Shown in pieces: positions 10,882 through 17,180 of a DNA stretch of 38,285 nt. Position 1 is the stretch's first letter. Each line of letters begins with the position of its first letter. The notes beneath the pieces were generated by a model. It was given only the letters and a program-made list of their open reading frames with translations, was not told the origin of the DNA and did not search any database. Position numbers and translations under genes: made by a program. Origin of the DNA: a virus (lineage: Duplodnaviria > Heunggongvirae > Uroviricota > Caudoviricetes); the IMG/VR virus record IMGVR_UViG_2645727978_000010; one strand, given 5' to 3'.

Positions 10882-11460
10882 ATGAGAGACATTGATGTAA
10901 GAAAGGCTGTGCATGCCAAGATTTTGAGAGATCATCATAAAGATCCTGACACCCTAATCATTGATGAGTTTACGATGAATCTGGGGGCTAGCAGAGCTGA
11001 TATAGCAGTGATCAATGGGCTTATACATGGTTATGAGTTGAAGAGCAAAAGTGATAACTTGCTCAGATTACCAGCGCAGGTGCAACATTACTCATCAGTG
11101 ATGGATAAAGTAACGTTGGTTGTCTCTGATTGCCATCTTTATGATGCTTTAAGCATAGTTCCATCATGGTGGGGGATAAAGCAAGTTACGCAAGGTGCAC
11201 GGCAAGGTATCCATTTAAAAACAATTCGAACTAGCAAGTTGAATCCACAAGTGGACAAACTTTCCTTAACAATGCTTCTTTGGAAAGATGAATTGCTTTC
11301 CCTATTAAGTGATGTAGGGGAGCTACAGAATTTGAAAAATAAACCTAAACGCGTCTTATGGTCAAAACTCGCCAATAGTATGGATGTTGGCGAGCTTCGT
11401 GAAGCTGTTCGAGTTAAACTTAAAGCCCGTAAAGAGTGGCGAGTTGCTCAACAACCTTAG
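10882..11460 (+). CDS. Predicted PD-(D/E)xK nuclease-fold protein (192 aa); sce7726-like by recollection
   Basis: Track ORF with ATG start; AT-rich; motif IIDEF...RADIAVINGLIHGYELKSK fits the D...D-x12-ExK restriction-endonuclease-like signature; family assignment not verified. Confidence 0.6.
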   Translation: MRDIDVRKAVHAKILRDHHKDPDTLIIDEFTMNLGASRADIAVINGLIHGYELKSKSDNLLRLPAQVQHYSSVMDKVTLVVSDCHLYDALSIVPSWWGIKQVTQGARQGIHLKTIRTSKLNPQVDKLSLTMLLWKDELLSLLSDVGELQNLKNKPKRVLWSKLANSMDVGELREAVRVKLKARKEWRVAQQP

Positions 11461-12517
11461 TTATGTGATGGTTTTGCCCAATCCTACGCCATACCTCTGG
11501 GCTACCAAATTTATAGTTACCAGAGGGATTGGCTTTGTAGGCTTGATACTCGTTTGCATAATATTCTATGTCTCTATCTCCCGCACAGAATGTAGGCCCT
11601 GAATATTCTCGATGAGCAAGAATATCCTCACTATGTTTACCATATTGTTCATAACCAAAGCGATTAGCTACTCTTCCTCGAAATACCCAAAAGTCATTAT
11701 CTCCAGAGTATCTGACGCTGGCAGATACGCTAGGGAATCGCGTCGAAAGCCTATTAAAGTCGGGGTGCTGTACTCCATAATCACTATAAATCACATTTCT
11801 GGCAAGTTCTTTTCTATTCATTAAACTCTGCCATAAAATCCACTCGATTCGAGGTTGAGAATATAGACCAACAGAAATATCACTGAGATCTGTAGGAAAT
11901 GAACCCCCAGAAAGAATCACTTTTCTGTATTCATTGAGGTGCGCCAGATTGTTTATCAATCCCATTGCCAAAGTATATAGTTCGCCGGAATTAAGTTTAT
12001 CCTCGGTTAACTCATCTCTTAAGTCAATAATTATATCAATATTTGATAAAGGAATTCCCAGATGATTAATGTAATGCGTTATTAATTGTGGGTTAACCAG
12101 ATCTAACGTGGTTAATCTCAAGCATATTTCATTCTGCATTAATTCATCAATCGCTCCTTTATAGTTAGATGGGCGAGTTGGTGAACTGACAGGAATAACT
12201 CTTATCCCCATATCTCTAACTTGATTAACCGCATTTATTATAGGGTAATGATCTTCAGGAGAAATAAAATGCTCTTCAATTAATAATCCATCAATATAAA
12301 CACCTTGCATATCTGAGCAAGATTTTGAGACTTTCTTTCCGAACTCTATAAGAGTCTCGTTATAACTCTTTAAGGCAATACCTGAATCAGGGTCAATTGG
12401 CACTGGTTCAATTTCGAGTAATGGCAAAATTTTTGATTTCTTTTCAATGGATAGCTGCGATAAAGCTGATAACTCAGAACGTTTCGCTTTCAGAATAGGA
12501 ATATATGAAATTGTCAT
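11420..12517 (-). CDS. 365-aa protein of unknown function; 'beta protein'/sce7725-like by recollection
   Basis: Track ORF with ATG start and AAGGT RBS (rev-comp of 12518-12535); AT-rich; convergent with the nuclease-fold gene with 41-bp 3' overlap; N-terminus MTISYIPILKAKRSEL recalls that family. Confidence 0.6.
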   Translation of the reverse strand: MTISYIPILKAKRSELSALSQLSIEKKSKILPLLEIEPVPIDPDSGIALKSYNETLIEFGKKVSKSCSDMQGVYIDGLLIEEHFISPEDHYPIINAVNQVRDMGIRVIPVSSPTRPSNYKGAIDELMQNEICLRLTTLDLVNPQLITHYINHLGIPLSNIDIIIDLRDELTEDKLNSGELYTLAMGLINNLAHLNEYRKVILSGGSFPTDLSDISVGLYSQPRIEWILWQSLMNRKELARNVIYSDYGVQHPDFNRLSTRFPSVSASVRYSGDNDFWVFRGRVANRFGYEQYGKHSEDILAHREYSGPTFCAGDRDIEYYANEYQAYKANPSGNYKFGSPEVWRRIGQNHHITKVVEQLATLYGL

Positions 12518-13074: not shown

Positions 13075-13230
13075 ATGAAGCAGCAAAAGGCGATGTTAAT
13101 CGCCCTGATCGTCATCTGTTTAACCGTCATAGTGACGGCACTGGTAACGAGGAAAGACCTCTGCGAGGTACGAATCCGAACCGGCCAGACGGAGGTTGCT
13201 GTCTTCGTGGACTACGAATCTGAGAAGTAA
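13075..13230 (+). CDS. hok: Hok/Gef-family type I toxin (51 aa; RelF/HokD-like)
   Basis: AAGGAGAAG RBS; product MKQQKAMLIALIVICLTVIVTALVTRKDLCEVRIRTGQTEVAVFVDYESEK has single TM helix plus conserved Cys, matching my recollection of HokD/RelF; the in-frame upstream extension (track ORF 13018..13230) occupies the mok position. Confidence 0.85.
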   Translation: MKQQKAMLIALIVICLTVIVTALVTRKDLCEVRIRTGQTEVAVFVDYESEK

Positions 13231-14391: not shown

Positions 14392-14681
14392 TGGTGAGTT
14401 TACGTAAAGCAGCGCGGGGCCAGATGTGCCAGGTCAGAATCCCTGGCTACTGCAATCACAATCCCGAAACTTCTGTGCTGGCGCATTACAGGCTGGCGGG
14501 GACGTGCGGAACAGCGACAAAACCACACGATATGCAGGCAGCGATTGCCTGTAGCTCATGCCACGATTTAATCGACGGGCGGGTAAAAACCAGCGATTAC
14601 ACCAAAGAAGAATTACGCCTGATGTATGCAGAAGGTGTTTTTCGCACACAAGAAATCTGGAGAAAGGAAGGTTATTTATGA
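14391..14681 (+). CDS. ybcO: YbcO-like (DUF1364) putative nuclease, 96 aa
   Basis: Track ORF; N-terminus MVSLRKAARGQMCQVRIPGYCNHNPETSVLAH and Cys-rich motifs match my recollection of DLP12 YbcO; same 96-aa length. Confidence 0.7.
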   Translation: MVSLRKAARGQMCQVRIPGYCNHNPETSVLAHYRLAGTCGTATKPHDMQAAIACSSCHDLIDGRVKTSDYTKEELRLMYAEGVFRTQEIWRKEGYL

Positions 14682-15220
14682 TTTACCCAACAAATACAGG
14701 CAAAAGCGGGGAACACCTTCGTCTCACCACGCTGGAAAGTGTCTGGATTCAGGGAAAACTGCGCATGTGGGGGCGCTGGTCGTATATTGGCGGCGGTAAG
14801 ACGGGAAATATGTTTAACCAGTTGCTGGCATCCAAAAAATTGACGAAAACAGCCGTCAATGAAGCCCTGCGCAGGATGAAAAAAGCGGGAATAGAGAAAC
14901 CTGAGCTGGAAGCGTTTTTGCGAGAGATGATCAATGGCAAGCAAAAGACCTGGCTGGCGCATTGTACTGATGCAGAGGCGTTATGTATTGATAGAGTCAT
15001 AAGTGAGGTGCTGGCAGAGCATCCTGGATTGATTAGTGTCCTCCGGCAACGGTATGAAGGACGGGGGATGACTAAGCGCAAAATGGCTGAATTGCTAAAT
15101 GATGCACATCCTGAGTGGTGTTTTAGCACATGCGAAAAGCGAATTGCTAATTGGTTGGCTGTTGCTGAGTATGCCCTATATATTCCCATGCGAGAATCAT
15201 TTGCTCAAAAAATAGCTTGA
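14678..15220 (+). CDS. Putative late-gene antiterminator (Q-like), 180 aa
   Basis: Track ORF 14558..15220 trimmed to ATG 14678 (ATGA overlap with ybcO-like stop, AAAGGAAGG RBS); last gene before a terminator and the lysis cassette; assignment largely positional. Confidence 0.45.
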   Translation: MIYPTNTGKSGEHLRLTTLESVWIQGKLRMWGRWSYIGGGKTGNMFNQLLASKKLTKTAVNEALRRMKKAGIEKPELEAFLREMINGKQKTWLAHCTDAEALCIDRVISEVLAEHPGLISVLRQRYEGRGMTKRKMAELLNDAHPEWCFSTCEKRIANWLAVAEYALYIPMRESFAQKIA

Positions 15221-15303
15221 TTTTTTACGCATAAACTGCTTCAATTCCGGTATGCTTCGCAAAGCTGTATCGCGAGGCGAACCAAGCGCATGAACTTTAC
15301 CAG

Positions 15304-15333
15304 AACCCGCCATTGAGCGGGTTTTGTTGTTTC
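15304..15333 (+). terminator. Rho-independent terminator downstream of Q-like gene (tR'-like)
   Basis: ACCCGC-CATTGA-GCGGGT hairpin followed by TTTGTTGTTTC. Confidence 0.6.
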
Positions 15334-15441
15334 TGGTACTGGCGAACCTGATGTTTCATTTCTGGAGCGCGATTCCTGGCGGAATACCTAGAATCGAGAC
15401 ATTCTGGTAAAATTGTTTTCAGTACAGGATGTGGAGGTGAG

Positions 15442-16011
15442 ATGAGAGAACTACCTAAAGATTATTTTTTAGGAGTAGATGATGAGCTCGTCGATTATCT
15501 TGAAAAACAAGGGGAAGAGACGATACGAGAGATTCATCTTTCTAACAAAACCAATGTTGAGAATGGATACAAACTTCTGAACATTCAGATTGTTGGAATT
15601 GGCTCATCTTTTTTATTGCTGACACAGAAAACTAATTTCGATTTTCTCACCGCCGGAATTACCACATTTACATTACTATGGACATGGTGCGCCATTTACT
15701 TGGTATGTACTGGTTTATCTGTGAAGGTTAGGGGCCTGATCAATGCCCCTCCTGATCATCTATATCATGAAAAATATAAGGATATGGAGCCCTCGAGCTT
15801 TAAAATATTCGCTGATGCAGGATATTTAGGACCTGATAAGTTATTGCCGCTTATACGAAGGTATCGCCTTGTTGACTTGAGTGATACAGCAAGAGAGTTA
15901 CTGTTGGAAAATGAGAAAATCCGCACGAGTCTCGATAAAGCAAGGATGTATACCATCCTTGCTCCGGTAGCGGCGATGTTTATCTCGGCTGTTTTTTTAT
16001 ATGTTCAATGA
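15442..16011 (+). CDS. Hypothetical membrane protein (189 aa), moron between Q-like gene and lysis cassette
   Basis: Track ORF; GGAGG RBS 15433-15437; AT-rich; ~50-aa soluble N-terminal region then hydrophobic segments (IVGIGSSFLLL; FLTAGITTFTLLWTWCAIYLVCTGL; MYTILAPVAAMFISAVFLYV). Confidence 0.55.
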   Translation: MRELPKDYFLGVDDELVDYLEKQGEETIREIHLSNKTNVENGYKLLNIQIVGIGSSFLLLTQKTNFDFLTAGITTFTLLWTWCAIYLVCTGLSVKVRGLINAPPDHLYHEKYKDMEPSSFKIFADAGYLGPDKLLPLIRRYRLVDLSDTARELLLENEKIRTSLDKARMYTILAPVAAMFISAVFLYVQ

Positions 16012-16141
16012 CTGAGTCGGCAGAATCTCCAACAAAAACACGACGTGTAGCAAAGTCCGCAGTACTTTGTGTTGGAGTTGGTTTTGGTGCCACGGGTTGC
16101 TGAGGTTTATTTTCACCTTGTGGCTTGTTTTTTTCAGACAT
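15980..16141 (-). CDS. Hypothetical small Pro-rich protein (53 aa)
   Basis: C-terminal part of track ORF 15980..16372 starting at ATG with AGAGGA RBS (rev-comp of 16142-16155); convergent with and overlapping the membrane-protein gene by 32 bp. Confidence 0.25.
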   Translation of the reverse strand: MSEKNKPQGENKPQQPVAPKPTPTQSTADFATRRVFVGDSADSVIEHIKKQPR

Positions 16142-16235
16142 AAAAATCCTCTTTGTTTGAATTGTTACTTTTGGCGATTTAACGATATCAAACACGAGTA
16201 TATACCGCCAGAAGCTTAATCTGGCACTCCATCTG

Positions 16236-16265
16236 GCCCCGGCATGTCCCGGGGCTTTTTCGTTG
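16236..16265 (+). terminator. Rho-independent terminator upstream of holin
   Basis: GCCCCGG-n6-CCGGGGC hairpin followed by TTTTTCGTTGTT. Confidence 0.6.
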
Positions 16266-16358
16266 TTAGGCTCCGGAAACATCCTCGACTTCTTGTTAGC
16301 AAGCCTGAGAGCCTGAATCTTACACTTAGCACCATCCGAACTCTCGGAGGTGAGGCTT

Positions 16359-16700
16359 ATGAAAATGCACAATGCCCCTCATTCCTGGCCTGACTTACTG
16401 GAACTCTTACAAAGTTGGTGGCGTGGAGATACGCCGCTGGGTGCAGTGGTTATGTCAATTATTATGGCTGGTTTGCGCATTGCCTATTTTGGCGGTGGCG
16501 GCGGCTGGAAACGAAAAACGCTTGAGATTCTGCTTTGTGGTGCTCTGACGCTGACCTTTGCATCCGCGCTTGAGTATGTCGGATGGCCTAAATCACTTTC
16601 TGTTGCCATTGGTGGTGGGGTGGGGCTGATTGGTGTTGATGCTATTCGTGGTGCGGCAATGAGGGTCATCGGTAACAAGTTCGGTGCCCATAAGGAGTAA
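16359..16700 (+). CDS. Class I holin with lambda S-like dual start (Met-Lys-Met)
   Basis: Track ORF 16350..16700 (GTG) trimmed to ATG 16359 after GGAGG 16346-16350; N-terminus MKMHNAP parallels lambda S107/S105 MKM starts; three hydrophobic segments; directly precedes endolysin. Confidence 0.75.
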   Translation: MKMHNAPHSWPDLLELLQSWWRGDTPLGAVVMSIIMAGLRIAYFGGGGGWKRKTLEILLCGALTLTFASALEYVGWPKSLSVAIGGGVGLIGVDAIRGAAMRVIGNKFGAHKE

Positions 16701-16703
16701 TTA

Positions 16704-17180
16704 ATGCAGACACTGAATTCCCAGCGTAAAGCTTTCCTTGATATGGTGGCATGGTCAGAAGGAACAGATAACGGACGGCAGAAAACCAGAAATCACGGTT
16801 ATGATGTTATTGTCGGTGGCGAACTGTTCACTGATTACTCCGATCACCCCCGCAAACTTGTCACGCTAAACCTCAAACTCAAATCAACAGCAGCCGGTCG
16901 CTACCAGCTTCTTTCACGCTGGTGGGATGCCTACCGCAAGCAACTTGGCCTGAAAGATTTTTCTCCAGAAAGCCAGGATGCTGTAGCGCTGCAGCAGATT
17001 AAAGAGCGTGGCGCTTTACCGATGATTGACCGCGGCGATATTCGTCAGGCAATCGACCGTTGCAGCAATATCTGGGCTTCGTTGCCGGGGGCTGGTTACG
17101 GTCAGTATGAACATAGAATCGGTGACCTGATTGCCCGATTTAAAGAAGCGGGTGGGGTGGTAAATGAAGCTGAGATATAA
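16704..17180 (+). CDS. R: Endolysin, lambda R-type lytic transglycosylase (158 aa)
   Basis: Track ORF; sequence QRKAFLDMVAWSEGTDNGRQKTRNHGYDVIVGGELFTDYSDHPRKLVTLN... is near-identical over most of its length to lambda R as I recall it. Confidence 0.9.
   Translation: MQTLNSQRKAFLDMVAWSEGTDNGRQKTRNHGYDVIVGGELFTDYSDHPRKLVTLNLKLKSTAAGRYQLLSRWWDAYRKQLGLKDFSPESQDAVALQQIKERGALPMIDRGDIRQAIDRCSNIWASLPGAGYGQYEHRIGDLIARFKEAGGVVNEAEI

Follow-up and report, generated by a model that had tools for sequence, protein, structure and literature searches.

A convergent gene pair encoding a membrane protein and a small proline-rich protein forms a mobile accessory cassette between the antiterminator and holin genes of a lambdoid prophage

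The virus record IMGVR_UViG_2645727978_000010 of IMG/VR (hereafter the window, 38,285 nucleotides (nt) in all) is a lambdoid Escherichia coli prophage that carries a cassette of two convergent, overlapping genes in the gap between its Q-like antiterminator gene and its holin gene. One of these, ORF189, encodes an inner-membrane protein of 189 amino acids (aa); the other, termed here the small gene, lies on the opposite strand and encodes a protein of 53 aa. Judged from its patchy distribution and deviant composition, the cassette is a real and mobile two-gene accessory insert of the moron type, and the retention of its layout in distant relatives marks the convergent pair as an old, mobile unit and no by-product of a single locus. 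As to function, we tentatively favor, with rather less than even confidence, a reading in which ORF189 would be a membrane-acting effector in phage-phage conflict (by exclusion or abortive infection) and the small protein its antagonist or partner, silencing it in the lysogen, with the two genes expressed reciprocally. The components of the pair are as follows.

15442..16011, plus strand: ORF189, inner-membrane protein of 189 aa with an ATG start (open reading frame (ORF) call; phrog_11870, function unknown, 6e-108).
15980..16141, minus strand: small gene, encoding a 53-aa hydrophilic Pro/Gln/Lys-rich protein from ATG 16141 (phrog_14506, 6e-33).
15980..16011, no strand assigned: tail-to-tail overlap of both coding regions, 32 nt (ORF calls).
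16147..16153, minus strand: Shine-Dalgarno sequence AAGAGGA of the small gene, 5 nt before ATG 16141; GGAG-like sites stand at the same place in relatives.

The association of these two genes extends far beyond the window. At most of the full-length ORF189 loci that we fetched, an ORF of 46-53 aa converges on the 3' end of the large gene, and the small gene is kept beside ORF189 in 37 pairs from many genera. The overlap measures 20 nt in most relatives and 32 nt in few, and pairs overlapping by 20-32 nt occur in Escherichia, Klebsiella, Citrobacter, Serratia, Yersinia, Proteus, Morganella, Pantoea and Trabulsiella. Exceptions without the usual pair are the Salmonella locus L013 and the loci with a truncated large gene (L020-L022). 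We also looked up the contexts of three remote relatives that are ~25% identical to ORF189, and an overlapping convergent small Pro-rich ORF is present in two of them: one relative adjoins cI-like S24 repressor genes and has a Pro-rich partner beginning MSNKKEKSPPPPPPPPPQK..., and another, in a Mu-like phage, lies between a DUF1804 gene and the large terminase gene. The third is chromosomal, with a convergent small ORF 95 nt away that does not overlap and is called in one of three contigs. Outside Enterobacterales the position and composition of the small partner are conserved and its sequence is not. It is because the pair is kept in ~25%-identical relatives, and has moved into a tail-gene cluster, that we regard it as old and mobile. 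The original prediction, made from the letters of the window, had treated the small ORF as a side feature; its convergent overlap, kept at this level of identity, shows it to be a conserved partner.

The pair among tail genes belongs to a Klebsiella pneumoniae prophage (L149 2486-3203), where it lies between a Rha-family gene and the tape measure gene, without the 27-nt box described below. Its ORF189 is interrupted by an in-frame TAG that follows codon 120 of the gene as called, and its small gene is intact; this form is widespread, being found in 40 blocks of the collection. The exceptional Salmonella locus (L013 4001-5636, a S. enterica prophage) holds a 192-aa relative of ORF189 and lacks the convergent small gene. 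At 10 nt past the stop of the 192-aa gene begins a co-directional ORF of 348 aa, for which neither Pfam nor PADLOC gave a match. This 348-aa partner shows that a membrane protein of the ORF189 type can be combined with other partners.

Both genes bear the mark of selection at the protein level. By the Nei-Gojobori method, and at informative divergence, the ratio of non-synonymous (dN) to synonymous (dS) substitution is 0.06-0.22 for ORF189 and 0.02-0.26 for the small gene; of the differences in the small gene between loci L138 and L123, 6 are non-synonymous and 18 synonymous. Since dN/dS is this low, we take the small ORF to be protein-coding and not merely an antisense RNA. In L136 versus L084, and in similar pairs, the small gene and box are near-identical (dN = 0, dS ~0.17) and the adjacent ORF189 stands at dN 0.10 and dS 0.9, which points to recombination inside the cassette near the overlap.

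The small protein contains 7 Pro and 5 Gln among its 53 residues; its VGDSA(D/E) motif is conserved and its C-terminus basic, and its family follows the consensus MSQSNKPxGExKPQPxxQQKPxPxxxxDFSVGRMxVGDSAEGLRKKSK. No signal peptide, transmembrane (TM) segment or cysteine is found in its sequence profile, and its AlphaFold2 model is mostly coil (mean predicted local distance difference test (pLDDT) score 62). RefSeq gives the gene a 71-aa form with a GTG start at 16195, inside the promoter-like box. Because every homologue begins at an MS(E/Q) methionine, equivalent to ATG 16141 with its Shine-Dalgarno sequence, and because conservation farther upstream is of the DNA, in differing frames, the RefSeq call is probably too long and the 53-aa form is preferred. 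The predicted convergent, overlapping, Pro-rich ORF of 53 aa at 15980-16141 is in this way upheld by its ATG, its strong Shine-Dalgarno sequence and its purifying selection.

Homologues of ORF189 form 104 clusters at 90% identity, nearly all exactly 189 aa long and all labelled hypothetical, from Escherichia, Klebsiella, Citrobacter, Enterobacter, Salmonella, Serratia, Yersinia, Proteus, Providencia, Morganella, Pantoea and Sodalis; the full profile search yielded 101 representatives of the family at 50% identity, and 8 loci came from searching genome contigs with the closer alignment. The membrane protein foreseen at 15442-16011 is borne out by the ORF call, by hydropathy and by the helices of the AlphaFold2 model. 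Topology prediction, which the original prediction had proposed as a check, gives two clearly hydrophobic segments (~68-92 and ~169-188) and one that is moderately hydrophobic and highly conserved (45-62). The model, built on an alignment of 41 sequences, is all-helical (mean pLDDT 81), with helices at 14-62, 68-92 and 134-188 and a poorly predicted loop at residues 93-133. The most conserved block of the protein is a small/polar TM motif, IVGIGSSFLLLTQ, in the more polar segment 45-62; further conserved blocks are the acidic DDxLVDFLEKQGE (13-25) and RRYRL (139-143). The order of the helices suggests a topology with a cytoplasmic N-terminus, a hairpin of TM1 and TM2 (~45-62 and ~68-92) and a C-terminal TM helix (~169-188) ending in the periplasm. 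In this model residues 14-44 and 134-168 would form a cytoplasmic two-helix stalk, on which the acidic block and RRYRL would sit.

A moron, in the sense of Hendrix and Juhala, is a gene added between conserved genes together with a promoter and a terminator of its own; stx in Stx phages and lc/nmpC of PA-2/DLP12 exemplify it in the gap between Q and S. Patchy presence at the same junction, deviant composition and a downstream terminator are all found for the cassette described here. The Q-proximal ~105-117 nt are common to 1445 of 5426 complete E. coli genomes, and 223 of these 1445 carry the cassette, which is accordingly present in ~4% of complete E. coli genomes; among isolated phages it is scarce (5 of 50,697 records). 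In the comparison of E. coli genomes, the majority of phages that share this Q and this holin lack the cassette, and other cargo fills the same Q-to-lysis slot in related prophages. The GC content is 40.5% for the cassette and 39.1% for ORF189 against 49.3% for the window, and GC at third codon positions is 0.36 and 0.24 versus ~0.47 in neighboring genes. The AT-rich, moron-like accessory insert of the original prediction is confirmed on both counts.

The small gene is headed by a conserved arrangement of DNA elements, to which the downstream terminator also belongs.

16164..16190, minus strand: conserved 27-nt box TGATATCGTTAAATCGCCAAAAGTAAC, of which the first 9 nt are the extended -10 and the remainder a conserved leader.
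TG at 16189-16190 and TATCGT at 16182-16187, minus strand: predicted extended -10 of the small gene (position weight matrix (PWM) scan).
16206-16211, minus strand: candidate -35 CTGGCG, in the 3' arm of the inverted repeat.
16207-16225, no strand assigned: inverted repeat GCCAGA-N7-TCTGGC, whose distance from the box is constant in most loci.
16235..16266, plus strand: right intrinsic terminator just 5' of the holin gene, with an 8-base-pair stem (7 GC pairs; 16235-16256) and then TTTTT.

Read on the strand of the small gene, the order of this scaffold is the complement of the terminator, the inverted repeat, ~14 variable nt, the 27-nt box (TGATATYGTTAAATCGCCAAAAGTAAC), ~10 nt, the Shine-Dalgarno sequence and the ATG. 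The stem of the inverted repeat co-varies between loci (GCCAGA/TCTGGC, GCCAGT/ACTGGC, GCCGCC/GGCGGC) and was captured only in part by RNAalifold, and the leader within the box contains a further inverted repeat, GTTA-N12-TAAC, in which one change is compensatory. When 29 non-redundant loci were scanned with a PWM, a single consistent sigma-70 candidate emerged, on the minus strand, with an extended -10 TGaTATYGT and, 17-18 nt upstream, a -35 CTGGCr; it scores 4.8 on average versus <1 at all other positions and on the other strand. We infer from this a minus-strand promoter of the small gene, with a predicted start near 16175 and a leader of ~34 nt. A reading of the box as a -35 TTGATA with a -10 TAACAA was dropped, as that -10 is not conserved, whereas TGaTATYGT is. 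The terminator folds at -16.4 kcal/mol (z = -2.0), and six pairs of its stem show compensatory changes across 20 related loci. Searching 14600-16800 against Rfam gave no family match beyond a chance-level hit.

The scaffold recurs with other cargo. Scanning viral contigs with 17 nt of the box returned at least 120 stretches, with ~100 true copies among the matches listed, and the scaffold is present in 272 of 5426 E. coli genomes (~5%). The same box, leader and Shine-Dalgarno sequence precede at least eight unrelated first genes in the viral contigs. These encode the Pro-rich small protein; 92-aa and 99-aa proteins; proteins of 161-179 aa, the 179-aa one matching DUF2441; a 67-aa zinc-ribbon protein that heads longer operons; a 54-aa protein whose gene is followed in phage EKP1 by that of a 2-TM protein; proteins of 148-170 aa; and a 96-aa protein. 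None of the box-headed cargo genes has a PADLOC match. In several of these sister cassettes a small late-sense gene converges tail to tail on the box-driven gene.

Several observations on individual loci belong beside this survey. A family of 73-90-aa proteins (MKFYELSSDSRSQAKITLGQ...) recurs in the slot (L002 3124-3396; L041 and L108) and lies 5' of ORF189 in BCE049; at other loci it is paired with the 92/99-aa box-driven genes, on which it converges in the late sense. Phage EKP1 (L024, recorded host Elizabethkingia) has a perfect copy of the 27-nt box, and phage vB_Apl-pPE4 (L023, recorded host Actinobacillus) shows a match of ~95% over 116 nt to the Q-proximal DNA of E. coli; the late regions of both are of the enterobacterial lambdoid type, and their recorded hosts may deserve a check. 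The 2-TM protein of EKP1 was compared with the ORF189 family as a possible relative and rejected (profile comparison probability 1.3%). Use of the box by nmpC of DLP12 (K-12), which is antisense in the same slot, was likewise tested and rejected, that region being without the 27-nt box.

To the left of the pair lie the antiterminator gene, the candidate late promoters and a further terminator, and to the right the lysis genes.

14678..15220, plus strand: Q-like late antiterminator gene, left flank (Pfam DUF1133, 2.8e-109, and Phage_antitermQ, 2.2e-06; PHROG 'anti-termination protein Q-like').
15155-15184, plus strand: candidate pR'-like late promoter TTGGCT-18-TATATT (consensus and PWM scans).
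15217-15245, plus strand: candidate pR'-like late promoter TTGATT-17-TTCAAT, the alternative to 15155-15184 (consensus and PWM scans).
15301..15336, plus strand: left intrinsic terminator, tR'-like, with a 10-base-pair stem (15301-15326) and a T-rich tail.
15405..15413, plus strand: candidate own promoter of ORF189, with a perfect extended -10, TGGTAAAAT, and a weak -35.
16359..16700, plus strand: holin gene of the lambda S family, right flank (Pfam Phage_holin_3_1, 1.9e-27; RefSeq annotation).

Strain FDAARGOS_1059 is identical (100%) to the window across this region, and the match of four induced phages (vB_EcoS-666R9 and its relatives) is 99.5%. The local gene order is hok, DUF1367, YbcO/DUF1364, the Q-like antiterminator, the cassette, holin, lysozyme, Rz/Rz1 and terminase; the lysozyme 3' of the holin is annotated in RefSeq as glycoside hydrolase family 24 and has no Pfam match. 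The left terminator (fold -18 kcal/mol, z = -4.1) lies inside the Q-proximal 105-117 nt that also match more than 1200 E. coli genomes without the cassette. Because of this distribution we assign it to the late-promoter unit, as a tR'-like element comparable to tR' of lambda, and not to the moron; ORF189 is the first gene behind it. Ten terminator-like sites were found in the region against 5.8 +/- 2.6 expected, which is not above chance, and these two are the strongest. The original prediction had the insert bracketed by two terminators, and both are indeed present; the left one, being conserved without the cassette, is not a bracket of the moron, and the right one is part of the conserved scaffold with the minus-strand promoter-like box and is common to other cargo. 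The right terminator would end Q-independent plus-strand transcripts and insulate the lysis genes.

ORF189 is likely to have a promoter of its own in the window, though not universally. The candidate is followed by a leader of ~22 nt, a GGAGG Shine-Dalgarno sequence and the ATG. A GGTAAAAT/GATAAAAT-like motif stands 36-42 nt 5' of the ORF189 ATG, in the exact form GGTAA[AG]AT in 13 of 22 non-redundant loci and, counting GATAAAAT/TGATAAAAT variants, in ~16 of the 22; it is missing in ~5 of the 22, where ORF189 directly follows a terminator. Because some loci have a terminator directly before the gene and no promoter-like motif, the conserved feature appears to be the placement of ORF189 on the late transcript.

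These elements suggest how the cassette might be switched. Apart from the overlap, all of the small gene is enclosed by the ORF189 stop codon and the plus-strand terminator, and the lysis genes come after that terminator. In the lysogen, the minus-strand promoter would drive synthesis of the small protein, and its transcript would run antisense into ORF189. The latter would be transcribed by Q-modified late RNA polymerase and, here, possibly also from its own TGGTAAAAT promoter, with leaky or own-promoter transcripts stopping at 16256-16260, short of the holin gene. Upon induction, Q-modified polymerase would read through both plus-strand terminators and raise ORF189, and late transcription would lower the small gene by collision and antisense pairing. 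Since the two units converge and overlap, reciprocal expression would be expected, the small gene being on in the lysogen and ORF189 low in the lysogen and high late. The small protein could silence ORF189 by antisense transcription, by binding its conserved acidic cytoplasmic tip, or by both. Antisense defense/inhibitor pairs in prophages have precedents shown experimentally in Tai/Ati (PMC11364771) and Tha/Ith (PMC11087260).

Within this reading we favor ORF189 as the effector because its polar, small-residue TM helix is conserved, because its conserved cytoplasmic tip could bind a basic partner, and because it has repeatedly been inactivated with the small gene left intact: by a frameshift in a prophage remnant of E. 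coli and E. marmotae, by an in-frame amber codon in K. pneumoniae and by truncations elsewhere. Several points weigh against it. No homology or fold match ties ORF189 to a known effector. Both candidate promoters are consensus-level predictions with a weak -35 and are absent from a stricter promoter scan. The knock-out pattern fits neutral decay in defective prophages too, and the Salmonella relative has no small gene and the co-directional 348-aa partner instead. Moreover, sequence cannot decide which protein is the effector, and the sister cassettes, in which it is the larger gene that runs antisense and a small gene that is late-sense, fit the reverse assignment. It is tempting to carry the favored reading further and to see the slot as a cargo hot spot on a portable scaffold that displays undescribed convergent effector/immunity cassettes; the ORF189/small-gene pair would then be the commonest of these and would include a new effector of abortive infection or exclusion that permeabilizes the membrane. 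A disordered antidote, together with antisense transcription, would restrain this effector, and Q-dependent read-through would switch it. In this full form we consider the proposal unlikely.

Of comparable, and likewise low, probability is an arrangement with the roles exchanged in the manner of Tai/Ati, the small protein being the anti-phage effector of the lysogen and ORF189 a late, Q-dependent self-immunity factor that would shield lytic growth of the prophage itself, for instance by trapping the small protein at the membrane. The orientation is that of phi80, where the defense gene is antisense within the late operon and the counter-defense gene lies in the late operon (PMC11364771), and in cassettes behind the same box, too, the antisense gene is larger than its small partner on the late-sense strand. 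Such a role would suit the survival of the small gene after loss of ORF189 in defective prophages, where self-immunity is no longer needed, as well as its conservation, which is at least as strong as that of ORF189 (dN = 0 versus 0.10 in some pairs). A largely disordered, low-complexity protein of 47-53 aa would, however, be an unusual effector, the small-protein sequence is not conserved outside Enterobacterales, where position and composition are, and the promoter-like motif before ORF189 in many loci suggests that its expression is not strictly late. A simpler proposal, to which we give somewhat less credence, is that ORF189 alone is an inner-membrane superinfection exclusion protein that blocks DNA entry, like HK97 gp15, P22 SieA or T4 Imm, and that the small gene tunes its level by antisense transcription or as a minor regulator. 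An inner-membrane protein encoded by a moron, with a candidate promoter of its own and a downstream terminator in the classical layout, is what this would require, and the original prediction proposed likewise. Yet no similarity to SieB, Imm or other exclusion families was found in Pfam or PADLOC, the conserved parts of ORF189 are predicted to be cytoplasmic and not periplasmic, several loci have no promoter-like motif for ORF189, and the clear protein-level selection on the small protein indicates more than an antisense RNA.

The two remaining explanations seem to us improbable. The pair could be a selfish or neutral passenger, either an addiction-type toxin-antidote pair or a hitch-hiker linked to the recombination-prone Q-to-lysis junction, with no role in conflict. 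Frequent ORF189 pseudogenes, the absence of recognizable domains and mosaic exchange of the box and small gene versus ORF189 (dS 0.17 vs 0.9 in the same locus pair) would all accord with this, whereas strong purifying selection on both genes across genera, an ORF189 length of exactly 189 aa in most of the 104 clusters and a paired layout kept at ~25% identity would not. Least likely among the roles that the original prediction named is an accessory part in lysis, in which ORF189 would modulate holin triggering or lysis timing as an antiholin, a pro-holin or an AbiZ-like protein that speeds the lysis clock. ORF189 does lie just upstream of the holin gene on the same late transcript and is a membrane protein with a small-residue TM motif. 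Against this, the cassette accompanies at least three unrelated holin families (3_1, 2_1 and others), four endolysin types (GH24, GH19, PF00959 and peptidase) and three antiterminator families, and it is also found at sites that have no lysis genes nearby: among tail genes, beside a cI-like repressor in an immunity region and next to a Mu-like terminase. It is because of these several holins, endolysins, antiterminators and genome positions that we consider a lysis role unlikely; most phages with the same Q and holin, besides, do without the cassette. ORF189 has no Pfam holin-family match, no Pfam or PHROG lysis-family match and no fixed association with one holin type, and remote-homology searches, by which its homologues might have emerged as ordinary lysis accessory proteins, gave no lysis family.

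Homology searches place the favored conflict effector and its partner outside the families searched. Neither ORF189 nor the small protein has a match in Pfam, NCBIfam or PADLOC (for PADLOC at E up to 1), and in PHROGs both match function-unknown families only. A PDB profile search with ORF189 gave a best E-value of 0.08, to an unrelated protein, and neither cassette protein matches any solved or viral fold. ORF189 shows no significant match to SieB, RexB, Imm, PycTM or SLATT as modelled in Pfam, PADLOC and NCBIfam; sub-threshold Pfam hits to 8xMP (0.019), PycTM (0.016) and YLATT (0.054) in 1-5 of 71 remote members were taken as a lead at most and not counted as membership, and the literature on 8xMP brought no further link. 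HepS of Gifsy-1 (PMC13043305) proved unrelated. The cassette genes match no toxin-antitoxin (TA) family in Pfam or NCBIfam; adjacent genes and a small disordered partner are TA-like traits, yet the genes are convergent and not an operon. A literature search by accession or PHROG number brought up no paper on either protein.

Elsewhere in the window, a Hok/Gef-family type I toxin gene (13075-13230, plus strand; RefSeq annotation of the identical locus) lies just 5' of the DUF1367/YbcO/Q block. The early region contains a second convergent overlapping pair, at 10882-11460 (plus strand) and 11420-12517 (minus strand). Its 192-aa protein (10882-11460) matches PADLOC 'cll' at 2.4e-28 and is named 'sce7726 family' in RefSeq, and its 365-aa protein (11420-12517) matches PD-Lambda-2_C at 2.8e-41 and is named 'beta family protein' in RefSeq. 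The pair at 10882-12517 is probably a known or partial prophage defense module.

If the antisense layout of the cassette works as it does in Tai/Ati and Tha/Ith, the 27-nt box beside a terminator upstream of the holin gene would provide a sequence handle for finding new prophage defense/counter-defense pairs, and the slot would also permit tests of how late antitermination switches such pairs. Should the cassette be inert or a mere lysis helper, the finding would be ordinary. Relatives of its proteins extend across Enterobacterales and into Mu-like phages, and none of these proteins has a name, domain or known fold. In Stx phages the toxin genes occupy this same slot, and for that reason the expression and insulation of cargo within it are medically relevant.

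Comparison with known systems locates the cassette between several of them. Like the lambdoid morons stx and nmpC, it occupies the slot between antiterminator and holin, is patchily present and deviant in composition, and is followed by a plus-strand terminator; nmpC of DLP12, between quuD and essD, is moreover antisense, like the small gene. Unlike these morons, the cassette is a two-gene convergent unit whose left terminator comes from the late promoter, and its proteins have no relationship to a toxin or porin. With RexA/RexB of lambda, and with abortive-infection membrane effectors such as PycTM and the SLATT-type 2-TM proteins, it shares the combination of a soluble protein and a small multi-helix inner-membrane protein, and one remote relative adjoins cI-like repressor genes as rexAB does; unlike RexA/RexB, its genes are convergent rather than in one operon and have no significant family match.

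The closest parallels are architectural. In Tai/Ati of phi80 the antisense defense gene is on in the lysogen and falls with Q expression, and the counter-defense gene is in the late operon (PMC11364771). The cassette similarly has one gene antisense within a Q-dependent late operon and its paired gene in that operon. The phi80 pair, unlike the cassette, lies upstream of the packaging genes and not between Q and holin, and the cassette differs too in pairing a membrane protein with a 53-aa disordered protein; the comparison with Tai and Ati is one of architecture. In Tha/Ith of Staphylococcus aureus 80alpha, an operon contains a nested antisense gene that has a promoter of its own, and a defense gene and its inhibitor are mutually exclusive across the switch between lysogeny and lysis (PMC11087260). 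The cassette also has an antisense gene nested in an operon, with a candidate promoter for it; Tha and Ith differ in that their phage infects a Gram-positive host and carries them in its cI (lysogeny) operon, Tha itself is a HEPN RNase, and no sequence similarity to the cassette was detected in the libraries used. With the small gene antisense between ORF189 and holin, on the path of the late transcript and with a coding overlap of 32 nt, the cassette has, by its gene arrangement, the architecture of a noncontiguous operon. Prophage accessory cassettes with an antisense layout are a known kind; what is added here is the portable promoter/terminator scaffold, as predicted from its conserved elements, with its many uncharacterized cargo pairs.

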